A stretch of 62,502 nt of DNA from Patescibacteria group bacterium (GTDB lineage: Bacteria; Patescibacteriota; Microgenomatia; UBA1400; UBA1449). The DNA is taken from NCBI GenBank assembly GCA_050942955.1, contig JBMNOG010000007.1, forward strand, positions 1 through 62,502, in the 5' to 3' direction. Both the position numbers and the translations under genes were made by a program. Position 1 is the stretch's first letter. The number at the start of each line of letters is the position of its first letter. The notes under the pieces were generated by a model. That model was not told the DNA's origin. It worked only from the letters and a program-made list of their open reading frames with translations, and did not search any database. Shown here piece by piece: positions 6,572-53,730 of this stretch.

Positions 6572-6755
6572 TGTCGGGTTCTTTCGTTCAAACAGCAAAA
6601 AGTATATAATACCAGTATAAGTTAAAAAGGTTTTAGTAACAATACTTTTGCTTGGTTATATATTTATTGGCTTAACAAATTCCTAAGAATTTCTTTCATC
6701 CGTTTTGTCTGATACCTGTTATCCGGCGCGTAAAGAAAGTATAATATAATCGTAT

Positions 6756-9338
6756 ATGTCCGAAAGTAAATCTGCTTCTAATTTGAGTTTTTTTGAGATT
6801 AGAGTTCCCAAATATTCAGAGGTTTCACCAGAAGCCATGGCGGCTTGTTTTCAGGCTTTACCTCAAATCAAAAACTCTATTTTTGATTCTCTTTTAGGTA
6901 AAGAGGAGGCTCTGACTTTTGAGTTAGTCACCTGGAACCAGCGTATTTACTTTATGGCTGCAGTACCGGCTAGCATTACCAGCTACTTTACAAGCCAGCT
7001 AACAGCCCAGTACCCCCAAGCTTTAATCTCACCAGTTGGGGACTATCTCCCCTTCTTTTTTCCGGAAAATAGCGACCAAAAAACTCAAATGCAAGTCAGC
7101 ACCTTTGGGAAAATCATCATGGCCAACCCTTTCTATCTACCGCTTAAAACTTACAAAGATTTTACTGACATTGATCCGCTCTCAACCATTTTAGGGACAC
7201 TAGCCAAAGCCGATCCTGATGATAAAATTCTGGTACAGTTTGTTGTTACCGCTGCTCCAAAAAGTTGGCAAAAACAAGGGTATTCTGTTGCTAATAAGCT
7301 TATACCCACCAGTGATCCTGAGAAGGTCATCCCTCACCCCCAAAAATCTCTCATTGAACAAAAAATCGCCCAGATAGGTTTTAATGTTGATATTAGAGCT
7401 TTGGTCGTTAGCTCAGACAAACACCATGCAGAAGCTGTATTAGCTAATCTAGCTGGCTCATTTGCCAGTGTCAGCCATGGTGACAGCAATCACTTAAAAT
7501 TAAAAATCCCGCTGCTTAGTAAAAGATCTTTGTTTGCTGAAATTATTGAGAGAAAACCTTCATTTAGTTTGAGTCCCCACGTACTGACTGCTGCCGAACT
7601 AGCTACGCTATACCATCTCCCTAACCAGGATTTGGTTTCAATTAAAAACATTGCCTGGGGCGGAACTTTAAAAGGTGAACCACCTGAGAACTTACCAATT
7701 GCCGCCGGACTTTCTGATAAAGAGAAGCAGGAAATCAACTTTTTAGCTAGGACTGAATTTAAGAATCAGGACACTGTTTTTGGTATTAAAAGAGTTGATC
7801 GAAGGAAACATATTTATATTATCGGGAAAACGGGTACCGGGAAATCAACACTTATTGCTAACATGGCAATTAATGATATGCGCAATGGCGAAGGTGTAGC
7901 TATTATTGATCCTCATGGAGATTTATGTGAAATAGTCCTTGATTACATCCCTAAACACCGACTCAATGACGTCGTCTACCTTGACCCAAATAGAGTCGAT
8001 AGTCCTTTCAGAATGAATCCTCTGGAATTAACTCAACCTGAGCAGGCAGAGTTGGTTGCTTCAGGGATTGTAGCTATTTTCCATAAGCTTTTCTCCTATT
8101 CCTGGGGACCTAGGCTGGAATACATTCTCAGAAACACTATTCTCACTTTAACAGCAATGCCCAATTCTACCCTACTTGATGTGCCAACAATCCTGACTAA
8201 CACTTCTTTCCGCAACCGCGTAACTGAGAAACTGAAAGATCAGACCCTTAAAAAATTTTGGACAGATGAGTTTAATCAACTTGACAACCGCGGCCGGACA
8301 GAAGCTATTTCTCCGATTTTAAATAAGGTCGGCCAGTTTATTACTTCTCCTAAAATTCGGGCTATTCTGGAACGACCCCATTCAAGCGTCAGTCTTGAAG
8401 ATGTTATGGATACAGGCAAGATTCTCCTCTTAAATCTTTCCCAAGGTAGAATTGGCGAGGATAACGCAGCCCTGCTTGGAGCAATGTTTATTACCAAGAT
8501 GCAGCTGGCAGCTATGAATCGGGTAAATGTACCCGAAGAACAGCGCAGAGATTTTTATTTATATGTTGATGAGTTTCAGAACTTCGCTACTTCATCATTT
8601 GTCAAAATCCTGTCTGAAGCAAGGAAATACCGTCTCAACCTGACAGTTGCTAACCAGTATACTGCCCAGGTTCAAGAGGATGTTCAAAAGGCAATTTTCG
8701 GCAATATTGGAACTCTTATTTCCTTTCTTGTCGGTTCAAGCGATGCTCGTTTGCTCAATCTTGAATTCGGGAATATTTATGAAGAATCAGATCTCGTTCA
8801 CTTAAACAATTACGAGATTATTACTAAGTTATCAATTGATAACCACACCTGTAGCCCGTTTGCCGCTAAGACTCTGCCTCTCCCTCGGTCAAAAAACAGT
8901 AACCGCGAAAAGGCTATAAGACTTTCTCTTGAGCGCTACGGAAAACCGAATAAACAAAAAAATCAACCGGACAAAATTCCATCTGAACCATCTAGAGAAA
9001 AACTCCAAGAAAAGATTCCAGAAGATCACTTAGAACGAAGAAAACAAGCTGAGGCAGCTGTACACAAACTTACACAACAAGGTATCGCTAGATACCCCAG
9101 TAACATAGCAAAACACAAAAGCAACCCACAATCCAAGAAAGAAGCTGGTGTGAATGCGTCAAAAGCGGAAAAATTTAAACATAATAATAAAATAGGTTAT
9201 GAAAACAAGAAAGAAGCTAATCGTTCACAAAAAATTGGTACAGAATCTCAAATCCATGACACCCAAATAAATTCCAAAAATGAACCGCATAATAAAGTCT
9301 CAAGGAGACCGATTTATGTAGTTGAAGAGGAAAAGTAA
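6756..9338 (+). CDS. VirD4/TraG-like (HerA/FtsK superfamily) coupling-protein-type ATPase
   Basis: Walker A GKTGTGKS, IIDPHGDL, Walker B LYVDEFQNF, SEARKYRL, ANQY; extra N-terminal domain and charged low-complexity tail typical of CPR homologs. Confidence 0.85.
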   Translation: MSESKSASNLSFFEIRVPKYSEVSPEAMAACFQALPQIKNSIFDSLLGKEEALTFELVTWNQRIYFMAAVPASITSYFTSQLTAQYPQALISPVGDYLPFFFPENSDQKTQMQVSTFGKIIMANPFYLPLKTYKDFTDIDPLSTILGTLAKADPDDKILVQFVVTAAPKSWQKQGYSVANKLIPTSDPEKVIPHPQKSLIEQKIAQIGFNVDIRALVVSSDKHHAEAVLANLAGSFASVSHGDSNHLKLKIPLLSKRSLFAEIIERKPSFSLSPHVLTAAELATLYHLPNQDLVSIKNIAWGGTLKGEPPENLPIAAGLSDKEKQEINFLARTEFKNQDTVFGIKRVDRRKHIYIIGKTGTGKSTLIANMAINDMRNGEGVAIIDPHGDLCEIVLDYIPKHRLNDVVYLDPNRVDSPFRMNPLELTQPEQAELVASGIVAIFHKLFSYSWGPRLEYILRNTILTLTAMPNSTLLDVPTILTNTSFRNRVTEKLKDQTLKKFWTDEFNQLDNRGRTEAISPILNKVGQFITSPKIRAILERPHSSVSLEDVMDTGKILLLNLSQGRIGEDNAALLGAMFITKMQLAAMNRVNVPEEQRRDFYLYVDEFQNFATSSFVKILSEARKYRLNLTVANQYTAQVQEDVQKAIFGNIGTLISFLVGSSDARLLNLEFGNIYEESDLVHLNNYEIITKLSIDNHTCSPFAAKTLPLPRSKNSNREKAIRLSLERYGKPNKQKNQPDKIPSEPSREKLQEKIPEDHLERRKQAEAAVHKLTQQGIARYPSNIAKHKSNPQSKKEAGVNASKAEKFKHNNKIGYENKKEANRSQKIGTESQIHDTQINSKNEPHNKVSRRPIYVVEEEK

Positions 9339-13249: not shown

Positions 13250-13891
13250 TTACAGGATTTTTTTCTTTTGAAGACTATTGACAATGGCTTCGTGAACCGC
13301 CTCAATTGACTTTGAGGCATCGATAACTATCCAACGATCATGGTCATTTTTCTTGGCTAGCTTCAGATATCCGGCTCTCACTTTTTCATGGAAATCTTTT
13401 TGCTCCATATCAAGTCTGTCCATTTTACCTGTCTCAGCTCGGCGGGATAAACCTACTTCTACTGGTACATCAAGCAGAATTGTCACATCAGGGTAGGTAT
13501 TTTGGGTAGAAATAGTGTTGAGTTGCTCAATAAGTTCCTCACCAAAACCACGGACAATCCCTTGGTAAACAAGGCTTGAATCTCGGGTGCGGTCACATAA
13601 AACTACTTTTTCAGCTTTAAGAGAAGGAAGGATTAGCTCTCTGTAAATCTGGGCCCTGGCAGCCTGAAAAAGGAGCACTTCTGTTGTAAACGCCATACCT
13701 ATGTTTTTAGCGCTTAATACTACCTCCCGGATTTGCTCAGAGATAACGGTTCCACCAGGTTCTCTGGTGATAACAACATCTTTTCCTTTTTTTCTAAACT
13801 CGTCTGCCAGACGGGCAATCTGGACTGATTTACCTCCACCCTCTCCTCCTTCGAAACTGATTAGCAGCCCCTTTTTTTCGTTTTTTTTCAT
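13250..13891 (-). CDS. tmk: thymidylate kinase
   Basis: LISFEGGEGGGKS, TREPGGT, LFQAARAQ, LCDR, YQG, PDVTILLDV; SD GGAGGAGG and TATAAT upstream. Confidence 0.95.
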   Translation of the reverse strand: MKKNEKKGLLISFEGGEGGGKSVQIARLADEFRKKGKDVVITREPGGTVISEQIREVVLSAKNIGMAFTTEVLLFQAARAQIYRELILPSLKAEKVVLCDRTRDSSLVYQGIVRGFGEELIEQLNTISTQNTYPDVTILLDVPVEVGLSRRAETGKMDRLDMEQKDFHEKVRAGYLKLAKKNDHDRWIVIDASKSIEAVHEAIVNSLQKKKIL

Positions 13892-13927
13892 AGCCTCCTC
13901 CCGATGTTTTTCTTATTATAGACAAGA

Positions 13928-14081
13928 AAGTACTAGGTACCAAGAGCTAAGTACTAAGAACCGTGGGCTAGGCGCTAAGAACTAGGTGCGAAGAACCAAG
14001 TGTTAGGTGCAAGGTACGAAAATCTAAGCACTGAGAACCAAGTGTGAAGAACGAAGAGCAAAGTGTTAGGTGCGAGGTAGT
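13928..14081. repeat. degenerate 7-bp tandem array (22 units)
   Basis: Unbroken 7-nt register: aagtact aggtacc aagagct aagtact aagaacc gtgggct aggcgct aagaact aggtgcg ... aggtagt. Confidence 0.85.
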
Positions 14082-14186
14082 AATAGCAAGAAGTAAGAAA
14101 TTAGCAGGGAGTAGTTAGAATACAAAGATCTTATTTCCACCCTTCCCTTTTCTTTTCTTGTTATAACAAACCATCAAGAAGGTGAT

Positions 14187-14657
14187 TTAGCACAGGAGGT
14201 CATTCCATATACTGGAAGGAATGCTGATGGTTACAGCTGTGGGATCAGGACGGTCAAGGCAACAAGGCTCGACTCGAACTTCTTCGATAGAAGAGGCAAA
14301 ACCCTGTCCAGACACCAACCGGAAGTACCCCCAATATTGGGTAGTGTACTCCCCCTGGAAATAGAAGGGATCGAAGACCCCCTCATAGATAACTCGGCCA
14401 TCCTCAACCGCCTCAGTCTTGTGAAGCAGAACCGTAATAGGATCAATGAAGACCCAAACTTCTTGAAGTTCCACGTTCTGGTCAATCGCCACTCGAACCA
14501 TCATCCGATCAGCGATGACCTCACCAGGCTGAGGACTTAAAATCTCAGCTAAGTCTTCAAATGCAACGGGGTTTACCACTTCCTGCGCTTCACTTCCTGG
14601 CGCCCACGCGACTACGACCAACAGCATACACACGACCAACATCTTCACCCTGTTCAT
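14187..14657 (-). CDS. secreted hypothetical protein (possible Ig-like fold)
   Basis: Signal peptide (MNRVKMLVVCMLLVVVAWAPGSEA), ILSPQPGEVI motif typical of Ig-like domains; SD GAGGAG; visibly GC-richer than flanks. Confidence 0.65.
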   Translation of the reverse strand: MNRVKMLVVCMLLVVVAWAPGSEAQEVVNPVAFEDLAEILSPQPGEVIADRMMVRVAIDQNVELQEVWVFIDPITVLLHKTEAVEDGRVIYEGVFDPFYFQGEYTTQYWGYFRLVSGQGFASSIEEVRVEPCCLDRPDPTAVTISIPSSIWNDLLC

Positions 14658-21561: not shown

Positions 21562-23100
21562 TTACAAATCCGCTGTATTGGGCGCGGGATCTTGGTGATA
21601 TTTGAGGTTGTGTTTCAGACAGTATTCTGCCCTTTGAAGTTCTGTACCAACATACATAGCGTGAGATGGCATAGAGATATAGTTCCAGTCAGAAAGTTTC
21701 CAGATCATTTCTGTCGCTGTTTTACCGGTCCATTCTTTTATCGGCGGACCGCCATTTGGTTCAAAAAGAGTAGCTTTGATAAGCTTTTCTTTGGGTAAAA
21801 TGTCAATAACCACATTACCCCTGGGATCAAATTCAAAATGGACTGCCGGCGTAAATCCAAGTTCTTTCTCATAGTTATCCATCAGAATCGTTTCCACTAA
21901 TTTAAAGTCATCGCTATAGATATGAGCTGAGTGAGTAATGAGGCTCAGCTTTCCCATTTCATATCCGCCATAGTCTGCAATTTGCTTTTGCAGTTTCCGC
22001 AAACCAAATGCATTCCTCGGCCAACCGTGTACCATATCCTGGGACCTAAAATGGGCTGTAAAGAAAAACTTATTATCCTGAACGCTACCTAAAGCCATCA
22101 CTAAGCAAGGTGTATCGCCATTGTTGGCATTGGACCAATCCAAAGCCGGGTCGGTCGTTATAGCCAGCATTTTTTTAGAATCTGGCCGGTTTTTGAGAAG
22201 TTTTTTCATCATCTCAATCTGGTCTAAACCAAAATGAGACATCATCCTATGGCCATAGTTATAGGCTGTACCGGGGATACGGCGCGGGCTCGTCATTTCA
22301 GGATAGTAGGCAGTAAGTTCAGCCCGGTCAAACGGCAAATAAGCCGGGAAGTATTCGTTATCAGGATCTTCGCCATCAACTACCGCTACCATATTCAACA
22401 CTTCTTTAAGCTCATTTTGCTGAGTATAGCGAGTGTGCTTGTAACGACCGTATTTATAGATTTCATTGATAACTTTAAGCCAAGTCTGGGCAACAGTCGG
22501 CCCTTCAACCCTAAACCCAACCTGCTCAGAAGGCAGAGGTTTTACTACCGGCTGAGATGGCGGGAAAGTTCGTACCTTATTTGCAAACGGTGGTTTTTGC
22601 GGCAGGCTTTCAAGAACTTTTGTTAGTTCTGTAGCCGGCTTACCACGCAAGTCGATAATTTCAATATTTTTTCTAAATGCCTCAATCGCTTTTCCATCAA
22701 TTTCTTTCTCAATCTCCCCCCTTGCTTGAATAATCTTATTTTCCTTATCAATACCTTCTTTAACAAACTGCAAAAGGGAGTGGCCGGACAAAGATAACTC
22801 AGCCCCCCACAAAACAATTGTCCTAATCCGAGGATTAGCCATGACATTCCTGATAATAGCGTTAACACCCTGGCCGGAATACAAATTGCCGATAACGGAG
22901 TAAAGCTTGGGATTTTTAATAAGTTTAGCCACTGCTTCCCGCTCCGTCCAGAGCGTACAAACAGCAATTGAGGATTCGAGATTACCTTTTATCAAAATGT
23001 CTTTATATAAGAGCGGCCAGTTTGATAAGTCGAGAGTAGGGACTTTTGTTTGTGTTTTTTTGGAAGCAGGTTTTTTGGAGGTTTTTTTCGTTTTTTGCAT
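21562..23100 (-). CDS. thyA: MtrA-like domain / archaeal-type thymidylate synthase / DUF4346 fusion
   Basis: N-terminal IAVCTLW...N.Y...GV..IIRNVMANPRIR..VLWG (MtrA-like); middle YGHR, TPC, RSQD, WPRN (ThyA catalytic motifs); C-terminal DPRGN...HAMYVGTELQRAE...YHQD (DUF4346). Confidence 0.82.
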   Translation of the reverse strand: MQKTKKTSKKPASKKTQTKVPTLDLSNWPLLYKDILIKGNLESSIAVCTLWTEREAVAKLIKNPKLYSVIGNLYSGQGVNAIIRNVMANPRIRTIVLWGAELSLSGHSLLQFVKEGIDKENKIIQARGEIEKEIDGKAIEAFRKNIEIIDLRGKPATELTKVLESLPQKPPFANKVRTFPPSQPVVKPLPSEQVGFRVEGPTVAQTWLKVINEIYKYGRYKHTRYTQQNELKEVLNMVAVVDGEDPDNEYFPAYLPFDRAELTAYYPEMTSPRRIPGTAYNYGHRMMSHFGLDQIEMMKKLLKNRPDSKKMLAITTDPALDWSNANNGDTPCLVMALGSVQDNKFFFTAHFRSQDMVHGWPRNAFGLRKLQKQIADYGGYEMGKLSLITHSAHIYSDDFKLVETILMDNYEKELGFTPAVHFEFDPRGNVVIDILPKEKLIKATLFEPNGGPPIKEWTGKTATEMIWKLSDWNYISMPSHAMYVGTELQRAEYCLKHNLKYHQDPAPNTADL

Positions 23101-23151: not shown

Positions 23152-23280
23152 AAGTGCTAAGTACCAGGTACCAAGTACTAAGTAGAAAGAATGATAAATT
23201 GCTTAATTGTTGAATGGGTTACGAGTTGCAAGTTACGAGTAACGGGGGAATAAGATTTAAGTATGAGGAAAGGGAACAAC
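23152..23280. repeat. degenerate 7-bp arrays
   Basis: aagtgct aagtacc aggtacc aagtact, then aattgct/taattgt and gttacga/gttgcaa units. Confidence 0.7.
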
Positions 23281-23549: not shown

Positions 23550-23704
23550 GTCATTGCGAGGAGTAAAAGACGAAGCAATCCCTTTCATTAGTCAGTGCGG
23601 GCGAGTCTTTTTAAACAAATGCGGCAATCTCCTGCTTCCCTTGAGATTGCCACTCCCGCAAAGCGGGATCGCAACGACCGTCTACTAACTACTGAATACT
23701 ATCT
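23550..23704. repeat. REP-like element copy A (GTCATTGCGAG type)
   Basis: GTCATTGCGAGGAG..GACGAAGCAATCC ... GATTGCCACTCC.GCAAAGCGGGATCGCAA.GAC plus CTACTGAATACTATCT tail; near-copy at 26261-26424. Confidence 0.8.
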
Positions 23705-23719
23705 ACTTGATTCTTGTTT

Positions 23720-25927
23720 CTATACCGAGCACGCCGAAAACCCACAGGAAGAACAGCTCTTACAGCCTTCATGGATTTGAAGCGGGCCACCGCATTGAGG
23801 ACAAGACTCAGATTTCTTGGCTTTTATTTTATTGACTATCGCTCTCCCCTTCTCGCTCCCTAAAATACCAGAGGTGAAGTTAACTTTTCTCTTTTTACTT
23901 ACCTGGCCTACATTCAAAACCTGCTCTGACCTTGAAGTATCGCGGTAGACTGTAATTCCCTTACACTTAATTTTCCAAGCTAGGATGAATGCTTGGGCTA
24001 CATCCTCAACTGTTGCATTAGAATTAAGGTTAATAGTTTTAGAAACAGCATTGTCTGTGAATTTTTGCCAGGCAGCCTGCATTTTTATATGGTCTTGAGC
24101 TTTAAGGTCATGAGCTGTGACAAATATCTTTCTAACTGACTCAGGAATTTCTTCAATGTGCTGGATTGATCCCTCTTCCATAATTGTCTCAACCAACCCA
24201 TTCTCAGATAGGTGCAGTTTCTGCAAGTGCCGCATAAGGTCTTTATTGATTTCCGGCAGCTTGTACCCACCCATTGCTTGTTTGTAAAATGCCAAAGCAA
24301 AATGCGGTTCAATTCCGTATGAACAACCGGCTGCCATTGCAATTGAGCCTGTGGGAGCAATTGTGGTAATGGTTGCATTTCTCTGGGGCTTTCGTCCTTG
24401 TTTATCCCAAAGGCTTCCTTTCCAGTTAGGGAACGCACCTTTTTCTTTAGCCAGAACCTGGCTTTCTAATAACCCTTCTGTTTGAATAAACTGAGAAAGC
24501 CTTTCTGCTAGTTTATAAGCTTCTTGAGAATTGTACGGGATTTCCAATCTCACCAGCATATCTGCCCATCCCATTACACCCAGACCGATTTTCCGATTCG
24601 CTTTAACTGTTTTCTCTACTTTTTCCAAAGGATAGGTGCAGATAGTAACTACATCATCAAGCATTCTCACTGCCAAATGAACAGTTTCTTTGAGCTTCTC
24701 CCAGTCGATTTCAAATTTTCTATCCCCGTTTGTGCCAGTAATTTTAAGGTGCTGAGCTAAATTAATACTACCCAAGTTGCAGGCTTCATATGGCAAAAGC
24801 GGCTGTTCTCCACAGAGATTGACTGATTCAATCACTCCCACATGAGGAGTTGGGTTGTACTTATTGATTTCATCTAAAAAGATAATACCAGGATCACCAT
24901 TCTTCCAGGCCATTGTAACCGCTAGATCAAAAATTGACCGAGCATCGACAGTGTTAACAATCTCACCTGTACGGGGATTAATGAGATCCCACGGCCTATC
25001 AGTCTCAACCGCCCGCATAAACTTGGAAGTTACTCCAAGGGAAAAGTTGATGTGGTTTAAGGCACTCTCCTCTTCTTTGCAAGTCAAAAACTCAAAAATA
25101 TCCGGATGAGAAACAGGTAAGACGATCATATTCCCTGAACGTCTACCGCCAGCCTGAAGAAGCATGTCTGAGGCTTTATTTAAGATATGCATAATCGCTA
25201 CCGGTCCGCAAGCTCTCCCGGTTGTTGTAGCTACTAAATCCCCTTTCGGTCTAATCTTTCCCAAGGAAAAACCCACCCCTCCGCCATTCTTTTTCAAAAT
25301 TGATGACTCTTTAACTACTTCAAACACACCCTCAACGCTATCCGGCATCGGCAGGACAAAGCAATTAGCCAGCTGATTATTGACTGTACCGGCGTTAGCC
25401 AGAGTCCTTCCTCCGGGGAAAAACCTCAGCTGCGACATAACTTCGTAAAACTTAGTTTGCCACGTCTTTTTGGCCTTAGGTTCTGCACTAGCAAGAGCGC
25501 GAGCCACTCTTTCAAACATTTCCTTCGGTGTTTCAACAATTGCTCCCTGATCATCTTTTCTCAGATACTTGTTGGCAATTACGACTAGTTGGTTATAGGA
25601 GAGTCCTAAATCATCTTTTACCCCCAAACCCCGACCGGCTCTAGCTTCCTGGCGCTGCTTTTCCCGAGCGATGATATAGGCTTTGGCTATCTGGTATAAG
25701 CTCTCATCAATTAAAATTCTTTCTACCGTATCTCCAATATCATTTGTGCCAATCACTGTTTCTTTACCGTGTTTTTTTTTAAGGTCCTTATACACCAACC
25801 CAGTGACACGTTTAGCTAAATCTTTGTTCACCTGATTAATATTCTCCTGGGCACGAATAATGGAAGACAGGATTTTTTCCTGGGAAAAAGGTTGAAGACT
25901 ACCTGATCGTTTATTTACTTGCCACAT
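23720..25927 (-). CDS. nrdJ: class II (adenosylcobalamin-dependent) ribonucleotide reductase with ATP-cone
   Basis: N-terminal ATP-cone (V.KRSG...F...KI), PGGRTLANAG, LANCFV, NLCGEQPL, CNLGSINL, TTIAPTGSI, C-terminal CPQCG..L...EGC..C..CGFSAC. Confidence 0.93.
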   Translation of the reverse strand: MWQVNKRSGSLQPFSQEKILSSIIRAQENINQVNKDLAKRVTGLVYKDLKKKHGKETVIGTNDIGDTVERILIDESLYQIAKAYIIAREKQRQEARAGRGLGVKDDLGLSYNQLVVIANKYLRKDDQGAIVETPKEMFERVARALASAEPKAKKTWQTKFYEVMSQLRFFPGGRTLANAGTVNNQLANCFVLPMPDSVEGVFEVVKESSILKKNGGGVGFSLGKIRPKGDLVATTTGRACGPVAIMHILNKASDMLLQAGGRRSGNMIVLPVSHPDIFEFLTCKEEESALNHINFSLGVTSKFMRAVETDRPWDLINPRTGEIVNTVDARSIFDLAVTMAWKNGDPGIIFLDEINKYNPTPHVGVIESVNLCGEQPLLPYEACNLGSINLAQHLKITGTNGDRKFEIDWEKLKETVHLAVRMLDDVVTICTYPLEKVEKTVKANRKIGLGVMGWADMLVRLEIPYNSQEAYKLAERLSQFIQTEGLLESQVLAKEKGAFPNWKGSLWDKQGRKPQRNATITTIAPTGSIAMAAGCSYGIEPHFALAFYKQAMGGYKLPEINKDLMRHLQKLHLSENGLVETIMEEGSIQHIEEIPESVRKIFVTAHDLKAQDHIKMQAAWQKFTDNAVSKTINLNSNATVEDVAQAFILAWKIKCKGITVYRDTSRSEQVLNVGQVSKKRKVNFTSGILGSEKGRAIVNKIKAKKSESCPQCGGPLQIHEGCKSCSSCGFSACSV

Positions 25928-26059: not shown

Positions 26060-26250
26060 CAAAGTGCAATGAGTAACAGGTAACGAATAACAGGTTAGGG
26101 GTTGCGGGGAACAGTTAATGTTCAATTATCAATACGCAATGAACAGTGAAAAAAACTTTAGTGATAAATTGTTTAATTGCTAAATGGGTTACAGGTTACA
26201 GGAAAAACAAGAAGTAACTAGTAAAAATTCAGTAGACGGTCATTAGTAAA
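26060..26250. repeat. degenerate 7-bp arrays
   Basis: gtaacag/gtaacga/gttacag-type and aattgtt/aattgct-type units; 26162-26192 nearly identical to 23192-23222. Confidence 0.65.
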
Positions 26251-26260
26251 TAGAAGACAC

Positions 26261-26424
26261 GTCATTGCGAGGAGTGTAGCGACGAAGCAATCCCTTCTAT
26301 TTGTCATTCCGAGCAAGTTCTATAACGAGCGTGACAATCTCTTCCCACTTCCCTTGGGATTGCCACTCCTGCAAAGCGGGATCGCAATGACTTTCTACTC
26401 TCTACCGTCTACTGAATACTATCT
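26261..26424. repeat. REP-like element copy B (GTCATTGCGAG type)
   Basis: Direct-orientation near-copy of 23550-23704. Confidence 0.8.
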
Positions 26425-26437
26425 GCTTTCTACTTCT

Positions 26438-53572: not shown

Positions 53573-53730
53573 ACTTTTTACTATAAAGAAAAAGTGAAGA
53601 GTAAGTAAGTAGCTGCTGCAAAGACTCTACCGCGCCTTGCCTTATACCCAAAATCCAGTAAAATATAATAGTCAATTAGGAACGCTTCATTAGCATTGGT
53701 AATTGAGAATTGTTAATTGAACATTGATTA

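Follow-up and report, generated by a model that had tools for sequence, protein, structure and literature searches.

The stretch of DNA analysed here, called the window below, is a 62,502-nt contig (C7) of a Woesebacteria-like Patescibacteria genome that comprises 1.13 Mb in 45 contigs and has a G+C content of 40%. A tandem array of heptamers occupies much of the spacer (13892-14186) between tmk and an orphan ORF. Genes were called with a crude longest-ORF heuristic, and Pfam matches bore out the identities that a first-pass annotation had given to tmk, to a thyA-like fusion and to a class II ribonucleotide reductase (RNR) gene in the window. A Pfam search with the orphan ORF (14187-14657) gave no match. 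The features of the tmk locus are listed below.

13250-13891, minus strand: tmk, thymidylate kinase (PF02223, E=1e-47)
13915-13943, minus strand: promoter-like site TTGGTA-17-TATAAT (10/12 matches), predicted, the best candidate for tmk
13928-14081, plus strand: core array, 22 in-phase heptamers (period-7 z=26; deviations per column are given in the text)
14082-14130, plus strand: seven degenerate units, AATAGCA ... AGAATAC AAAGATC, in the same phase as the core
14080-14168, unstranded: approximate hairpin between the final units of the array and a CT-rich tract that lies immediately beyond the orphan ORF stop
14187-14657, minus strand: orphan ORF with a hydrophobic, signal-peptide-like N-terminus, upstream of the array

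Read on the plus strand, positions 13928-14081 form 22 heptamers with the consensus A-R-G-N-R-C-N (AAGTACT type). The run is free of indels, and the perfect 7-nt register claimed in the first-pass annotation holds. The mean column information is 0.97 bit at period 7 versus 0.10-0.22 at periods 3-13, and the period-7 signal reaches its z of 26 against 5000 shuffles. The phase is kept by the seven more degenerate units up to approximately 14130, which gives 29 units without a phase-breaking indel; Tandem Repeats Finder returned the array as fragments only. Deviations from the consensus are distributed unevenly over the seven columns (2, 8, 1, 11, 11, 4 and 11 for columns 1-7; p=0.0003). A1, G3 and C6 are conserved and columns 4, 5 and 7 are near saturation; by the consensus, columns 2 and 5 hold purines only, and columns 4 and 7 are near-random. 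Since the conserved columns are A, G and C, G/C columns have been retained in a genome of 40% G+C. Such column-specific conservation is not predicted by simple neutral decay and suggests constraint. The identity between units is about 0.5 at each multiple of 7 and stays flat with distance, which likewise does not fit simple decay. The best internal duplications all fall at multiples of 7, with 25 of 28 bases matching at a lag of 63 and 23 of 28 at a lag of 77, which points to growth by in-register block duplication.

The -35 of the predicted tmk promoter falls within units 2-3 of the array. The earlier proposal that the array supplies the TTGGTA -35 to tmk is thus in agreement with the best promoter-like site, itself a prediction. 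A phase-variation contingency repeat was considered and rejected because the array is degenerate and lies upstream of and over the -35, not between the -35 and the -10 or inside an ORF. The gene abutting tmk in the closest sampled relative is a different one, and the present genome has no orthologue of either tmk neighbour found there.

Could the array act as RNA? Read-through from the orphan gene would produce a pyrimidine-rich heptad tail, which might be bound by a protein or serve as a 3' processing or stabilising element. The array lies directly 3' of the orphan ORF, no intrinsic terminator is predicted, and the distal hairpin sits just past its stop codon. Paired arrays elsewhere form stems resembling the RNase III substrates of rRNA intervening sequences (PMC4990558), and a cold-shock protein, S1 or CsrA was proposed by MacGregor as the binder of TAACTGA repeats (PMC4679880). 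However, folding of the minus-strand spacer transcript does not exceed that of its shuffles (z=0.45, as against z=-1.95 for the plus strand), and a stable RNA fold was rejected for this reason. The hairpin at 14080-14168 is the sole inverted partner of the array, most of which is unpaired, and the covariance models of Rfam 15 gave no match to it. Taken together, a role of the array as RNA is quite unlikely.

Several other heptamer arrays and hairpins are present in the window.

23152-23193, plus strand: A-R-G-N-R-C-N family, 5-6 units, upstream of the thyA-like fusion (position-weight-matrix score 33.2; 0 matches in the shuffled genome)
23194-23244, plus strand: AATTG-type, then GGGTTAC/CGAGTTA-type heptamers, a family other than that of tmk
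23550-23678, unstranded: REP-like hairpins GTCATTGCGAG...GCAATCCC and an inverted copy
23682-23721, plus strand: inverted pyrimidine-rich CTACTRA-type heptamers abutting the RNR stop codon
26060-26250, plus strand: CAATGAG/TAACAGG, then AATTG, GGGTTAC and AAG/TAG heptamers, leading to a REP-like hairpin
26261-26391, unstranded: REP-like hairpin cluster between topA and the RNR gene
26390-26435, plus strand: inverted ACTNTCT heptamers that adjoin the topA stop and are homologous to those at 23682-23721
53695-53727, plus strand: short ATTGNNA heptamer run just upstream of tRNA-Ala

The unit types of the tmk array had been reported to recur upstream of thyA, and AAGTGCT, AAGTACC, AGGTACC and AAGTACT are indeed found at 23152-23186. 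The gene downstream of them, on the minus strand at 21562-23100, has an unusual architecture: the "thyA" is a 512-residue fusion of an MtrA-like domain, a partial thymidylate synthase (profile positions 96-224) and PterinBD-DUF4346. Related arrays had also been placed at 23190-23280, 26060-26250 and 53701-53728. A segment scan does detect period-7 segments in the window at 23152-23244, 26060-26150, 26187-26224 and 53695-53727, but the first two of the three reported arrays belong to other families (AATTG, GGGTTAC, AAG/TAG) and lead into REP-like hairpins. The statement that all arrays are purine-rich on the plus strand is not general, because those at 23682-23721 and 26390-26435 are pyrimidine-rich on that strand.

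The families follow a fixed order in this genome, AATTG, then GGGTTAC, then AAGNAAG/TAGTNAG, ending exactly at the REP-like hairpin GTCATTGCGAG...GCAATCCC. A stretch of 41 nt at 26150-26190 of the window is 90% identical to C15 138934-138974 (minus strand) and consists of an A-run, then TTTAGTGATAAATTG..., leading into the AATTG/GGGTTAC heptamers; as it is common to two spacers, the composite "leader" is itself a dispersed element. The hairpin family GTCATTGCGAG...GACGAAGCAATCCC is often clustered and also occurs at C8 9727-10024, C11 12728-12943, C43 18401-18487 and C15 138812-138843. The end of the tmk array at 14130 resembles the leader AGTAGAT AGAATAC AAAAACA that precedes the REP-like hairpin on C43, and the hairpin is absent after the tmk array. 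Among the 121 genomes of the order, 13 carry the REP-like hairpin, and 7 of 14 do so in one family. An obligatory linkage of arrays to the GTCATTGCGAG hairpin was rejected: it is seen in this genome, and the hairpins of relatives have no preceding arrays. No matching description of this hairpin was found in the literature searched, where a query with its sequence gave primer matches only.

Using a weight matrix built from the tmk units, we searched the whole genome and a shuffled genome for the A-R-G-N-R-C-N family. It occurs in 12 places at about nine loci, against none in the shuffled genome; the loci are tmk, thyA, an arm on contig C13, three inverted pairs and three solo runs. The inverted pairs (C9 22181/22218, C40 11568/11625 and C40 13913/13988) form short facing hairpins. 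Those on C40 (11568-11659 and 13913-14022) are heptamer-armed hairpins that lie in frame in two class II RNR paralogues and encode a low-complexity variable linker just before the C-terminal CPECG zinc ribbon. The RNR orthologues of the congeneric G004 (L170 2479-2555) and G005 (L178 170-250) carry different heptamer hairpins at the same mid-gene site, each giving about 20 extra residues in the loop after NLAKHI; the position is kept and the sequence is replaced.

Arrays of all families were located genome-wide by a match/mismatch segment scan run by period. There are 36 period-7 segments versus 2-8 for periods that are not multiples of 3, and in non-coding DNA the scan gives 37 versus 3-13 for the control periods. 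No locus has at least three exact tandem copies at period 7, and therefore every array in this genome is degenerate. The density of arrays per kb in tandem, divergent and convergent spacers is 0.21, 0.24 and 0.10 here and 1.58, 1.41 and 1.45 in the relative G015. A promoter- or terminator-specific placement was rejected on the basis of these similar densities. The purine-rich strand is antisense to the local genes in seven cases and sense in six, and strand polarity was rejected as well.

A link between the arrays and the supply of dNTPs had been suggested in the first-pass annotation. In such a regulon the arrays would be cis-elements of tmk, thyA and the RNR genes, and the A-R-G-N-R-C-N family does occur upstream of tmk and thyA and inside the two class II RNR paralogues on C40; other heptamer families flank the RNR gene of the window, and an array lies 734 nt downstream of ndk. 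Yet the copies on C40 sit in coding linkers rather than promoters, and the arrays at the RNR gene in the window belong to other families. About 17 further array-bearing spacers in this genome flank unrelated genes; arrays adjoin genes for superoxide dismutase (SOD), SerRS, CysRS, a Lon-like protease, GatA, ADP-forming acetyl-CoA synthetase, ATP synthase epsilon, and PEGA and Lcl_C surface proteins. At tmk loci of 64-81% identity, none of ten has an upstream array. Across the order (19 tmk loci), directly upstream arrays occur only in G015, as an inverted pair of another unit family, and the tmk locus of G021 has strong arrays just downstream. The RNR loci of relatives hold 24 arrays in 110 kb, or 217 per Mb. 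The pooled background of the seven relatives sampled first is about 137 per Mb, and the RNR loci do not clearly exceed it. What is left is an excess of arrays near tmk, thyA, RNR genes and ndk in this genome alone, for a gene set defined post hoc, and this excess is not conserved. Because arrays are found in all spacer classes, show no polarity, lie next to unrelated genes and are missing at the tmk loci of relatives, the tie to dNTP supply is unsupported. The genome-wide scan with its neighbour and strand tests thus shows essentially no functional or strand bias, the array at tmk shows no positional conservation in relatives, and the suggested connection to nucleotide metabolism or replication was abandoned. 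We consider a dNTP-supply regulon highly improbable and infer that the tmk array exerts no dNTP-specific control; whatever influence it has on tmk would be incidental, through the -35 box or as spacer DNA.

A different neighbour of the A-R-G-N-R-C-N family is found on contig C13. PF05635 (23S-rRNA-intervening-sequence protein, S23p, Avd-like) is represented in the genome by a single strong gene, which lies at C13:1907-2269 (minus strand) and scores 129.9 bits; the closest solved relatives of its protein are 2gsc and 2rld. The family is regarded as Avd-like (PMC10053308), and 2gsc is described as a homopentamer of four-helix bundles in an account that refers to Lin et al. 2006 (PMC4990558). The 5' arm, AGGTGCT AAGTGCC AAGAGCT AAGTACT AAGTAGT, runs straight into the ATG of the PF05635 gene, and inverted units (ACTTAGC ACATCGC ACTCAGC ACATCGC) follow its stop as the 3' arm. 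The two arms close a predicted fold (z=-2.4). The C13 arm and the tmk array have 19 consecutive identical bases in the same A-R-G-N-R-C-N units. The tmk array therefore belongs to the unit family of the arm, but neither a PF05635 gene between arms nor pairing inverted arms are found at tmk; the gene and its inverted arms are both present at C13, and pairing inverted arrays at three other family loci. Beyond the orphan gene there is no inverted partner arm, no longer inverted repeat was found for the tmk array, and no relic or pseudogene of PF05635 was detected in the spacers of the window.

How widespread are such arrays in relatives? We scanned samples of 100-400 kb per genome in 11 relatives, which carry the labels Candidatus Woesebacteria or Patescibacteria and none of which is of the same genus as this genome; periods 5, 8, 10, 11 and 13 served as controls for the array excess.

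G015, 293 kb: 99 period-7 arrays, controls 0-14
G033, 200 kb: 51 period-7 arrays, controls 0-15
G016, 100 kb: 27 period-7 arrays, controls 1-5
G004 (same family), 400 kb: 37 period-7 arrays, controls 1-3
G007, 200 kb: 12 period-7 arrays, controls 0-1
G019, 200 kb: 6 period-7 arrays, controls 0-10, not enriched
G029, G017, G036, G038 and G034, 100 kb each: 0 period-7 arrays, controls 0-4

Some of the sampled Microgenomates relatives thus carry 60-340 arrays per Mb, of many unit families, and others none, and in G015 arrays account for about 7-11% of spacer DNA. Loci with at least three exact tandem copies at period 7 number 17 in G015, 11 in G033, 5 in G004 and 3 in G007, against 0-3 at other periods in any genome. 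As exact and degenerate arrays are both found, young perfect and old degenerate arrays coexist in the order. In relatives many arrays come as inverted pairs, as where AAGTTAA runs precede AACTTTT runs or TAATGAG precedes CTCATTA. All long G015 arrays tested have a core plus variable columns (p from 6e-7 to 0.05), and A-T-R-G-C-N-N recurs at five G015 loci (p from 6e-7 to 0.01). Unit families common to several genomes were rejected, as the sharing is only 2-3 times the chance expectation and is confounded by A-richness.

The link to PF05635 extends to these relatives. There are seven PF05635 genes in G015, eight above the cut-off in G033, five in G016, three in G005 and one each in G007, G019 and G036; none was found in G004, G029, G038 or G034, and none above the cut-off in G017. 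Of the 17 genes examined in five relatives, most have period-7 arrays no more than about 130 nt away, and at about ten of them these arrays form inverted pairs. The arm units are among the top dispersed families of their own genomes; among some 1170 possible classes they rank 1, 2, 6 and 7 in G015 and 1, 3 and 4 in G033. Over 12 related genomes, the array excess per Mb correlates with the number of PF05635 genes (Spearman rho=0.76, p=0.004, uncorrected for phylogeny). The exceptions are G004, which has arrays without a PF05635 gene, and G036, which has a PF05635 gene without an array in its 100-kb sample. The PF05635 gene of G019 (L142) is preceded by six ACAGTGAC octamers and followed by an inverted copy, with a period of 8 rather than 7, and 200 kb of that genome hold 10 period-8 versus 6 period-7 arrays; cassette arms may thus have units of different length in different lineages.

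A PF05635 ORF is also found beside a reverse transcriptase. At C8 5428-9265 (L021) of the present genome, an ORF matching RVT_1 (64 bits) is directly followed by a weak Avd-like PF05635 ORF (6641-6943), and a convergent gene of Lcl_C/DUF1566 type on the minus strand (7427-9265) could be a variable target; this region is likely a diversity-generating retroelement (DGR). A reverse-transcriptase (DGR) origin of the arrays was rejected, as RVT_1 is absent from the array-rich G015 and G033.

Replication slippage alone would account for the arrays as microsatellites with no link to hairpin cassettes, as in the polymerase-footprint idea attributed to Mrazek et al. 2007 in later papers. According to those papers (PMC4679880, PMC4692102), heptamers are more frequent than any other type of long simple repeat in many prokaryotes, and the in-register block duplications in the tmk array fit such a process. 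A match to MutS domain V was not found in nine of the ten genomes tested (G000, which is this genome, G004, G005, G007, G015, G016, G017, G019 and G033); G029 is the one exception. In general the order seems to be without mismatch repair, which would favour slippage. However, loss of mismatch repair was rejected as a sufficient cause, as MutS-less genomes may be array-free too (G017, G019, G036). Because array-free genomes are also without MutS, its loss is permissive for slippage and not sufficient. Slippage leaves unexplained why few unit families recur at many loci and match the PF05635 arms, and the column-specific conservation also speaks against it. The tmk array is made of head-to-tail units of exactly 7 nt, without the near-perfect unit identity of simple sequences. 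Pure slippage is, all in all, about as unlikely as an action as RNA.

The conserved columns invite another explanation, in which the tmk array is a track of heptad binding sites. A cooperative protein would coat the DNA upstream of and over the -35, tuning transcription or chromosome structure, and the candidate readers are the PF05635 pentamer or a ribbon-helix-helix protein similar to the omega repressor of pSM19035. The omega-repressor operators of pSM19035 are contiguous, unspaced 7-bp units, direct or inverted, that overlap promoters; their WATCACW units, 7-10 in number, are well conserved and come with a cognate ribbon-helix-helix gene. In contrast, the core of the tmk array amounts to three conserved columns, no WATCACW-like consensus was identified, and no partner gene was identified among its neighbours, tmk and the orphan without a Pfam match. 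The position-specific conservation (A1, G3 and C6, purines in columns 2 and 5, near-random columns 4 and 7) speaks for such a track, and the same core-plus-variable pattern is present in every long G015 array tested. The 29 units without a phase-breaking indel, the predicted -35 inside the array and the bracketing of a PF05635 gene by the family, like sites that bracket their own gene, are also consistent with a reader. On the other hand, arrays are similarly dense in convergent spacers, which hold no promoter, their position is not conserved in relatives, each genome has many unit families and few regulators, and arrays far outnumber PF05635 genes. We regard a binding track at tmk as unlikely. 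Part of the protein-binding or structural scaffold proposed in the first-pass annotation stands: with columns 1, 3 and 6 conserved, a generic sequence-specific reader of heptads is conceivable. Its tie to nucleotide metabolism or replication does not stand.

Heptanucleotide arrays have been known since 1990 as short tandemly repeated repetitive (STRR) heptamers; since 2007 they have been recognised as the most frequent long simple repeat of prokaryotes. To our knowledge, there is no accepted account of their origin and function. As far as the STRR repeats of heterocystous cyanobacteria and the long simple sequence repeats of prokaryotes are described in the papers through which we compared them (Mrazek, Guo and Shah 2007, via PMC4679880 and PMC4692102), the arrays here share with them tandem 7-nt units, intergenic position, few families at many loci, a patchy phylogeny and the lack of an assigned function. 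By the same descriptions, they differ in that all arrays here are degenerate, without three exact copies, and have a conserved core with variable columns, and in that the host is an ultra-small genome of the Patescibacteria (CPR, candidate phyla radiation). No description of heptamer arrays in CPR was found in the literature searched. The GGGAATC arrays of Xanthomonas and the GGGGA(C/T)T arrays of Nostoc (Rehm et al. 2015, PMC4692102) are likewise intergenic heptamers, some in inverted pairs, that vary between close relatives and keep to no single gene class; they are G-rich and able to form quadruplexes, whereas the tmk units have no G-tracts. The TAACTGA direct repeats of Beggiatoaceae, Cyanobacteria and Bacteroidetes, for which an RNA-binding protein was proposed (MacGregor 2015, PMC4679880), are direct heptamers beside genes of all functions, as are the arrays here. 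Those repeats mostly lie a few nucleotides from start codons in 2-6 exact copies, whereas the tmk array lies upstream of the promoter with 22-29 degenerate units. The assignment of the tmk array to the STRR-type class, made in the first-pass annotation, can be retained: it is most likely a member of a known, still unexplained class of heptamer repeats.

The closest parallel for the C13 cassette comes from Coxiella. In the 23S rRNA intervening sequence of Coxiella, terminal inverted repeats form a stem that is cut by RNase III and holds an S23p ORF, and two or three tandem GACAGAT heptamers, depending on the strain, directly precede the start codon of this ORF (PMC4990558). The C13 cassette has the same layout, a PF05635 gene in an inverted-repeat stem with heptamers before the start codon. 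Unlike the Coxiella sequence, it lies between protein-coding genes and not in rRNA, and the tmk array has neither a gene nor a partner arm.

Based on these comparisons, we favour, with a probability of roughly 0.6, that the tmk array is a degenerate, partner-less copy of the dispersed A-R-G-N-R-C-N heptanucleotide family and not a dNTP control element. Arrays would begin as arms of hairpin-forming inserts, expand by in-register block duplication in a lineage without MutS, and decay by point substitution, such that none here keeps three exact copies. The tmk array would have come to lie between the orphan gene and tmk, where gene order departs from that of the closest sampled relative, and the tmk promoter would have come to use units 2-3 as its -35. 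A cassette-arm origin of the tmk array is inferred from the shared family only, as neither a partner arm nor a PF05635 relic is present near it.

A further reading draws on REPIN-RAYT systems (Bertels and Rainey 2011, PMC3116915), which serve as a working analogy only: in both cases a single-copy gene is flanked by a genome-dispersed family of hairpin-doublet repeats. By that analogy, PF05635 genes would stand to heptamer-armed hairpins as RAYT genes stand to REPINs, namely as "autonomous" partners, each with its cognate heptad family on either side. The much more abundant hairpins without a gene, and solo arrays like that at tmk, would be dispersed progeny, and the core columns (A-x-G-x-x-C) would be a recognition code of the protein. 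Unlike RAYT, PF05635 proteins have no known nuclease or transposase activity, and the mobility of heptamer hairpins is putative. We put this forward tentatively, as a possibility that is rather doubtful on present evidence.

For annotation, the consequence is that the tmk array should not be labelled a dNTP-supply regulatory element. The analysis extends heptamer arrays to ultra-small Patescibacteria, where spacer DNA is scarce; two further new points are that arm units match the dominant dispersed families and that the dNTP reading is rejected. In the genomes sampled here, arrays form arms around PF05635 genes, and the number of these genes tracks the array load. The link between PF05635 and the arrays poses a concrete question, namely whether PF05635 proteins bind their cognate heptads. 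If true, the view of PF05635 genes as partners of the arrays would account for the surplus of 7-nt repeats that has long been noted in prokaryotes.
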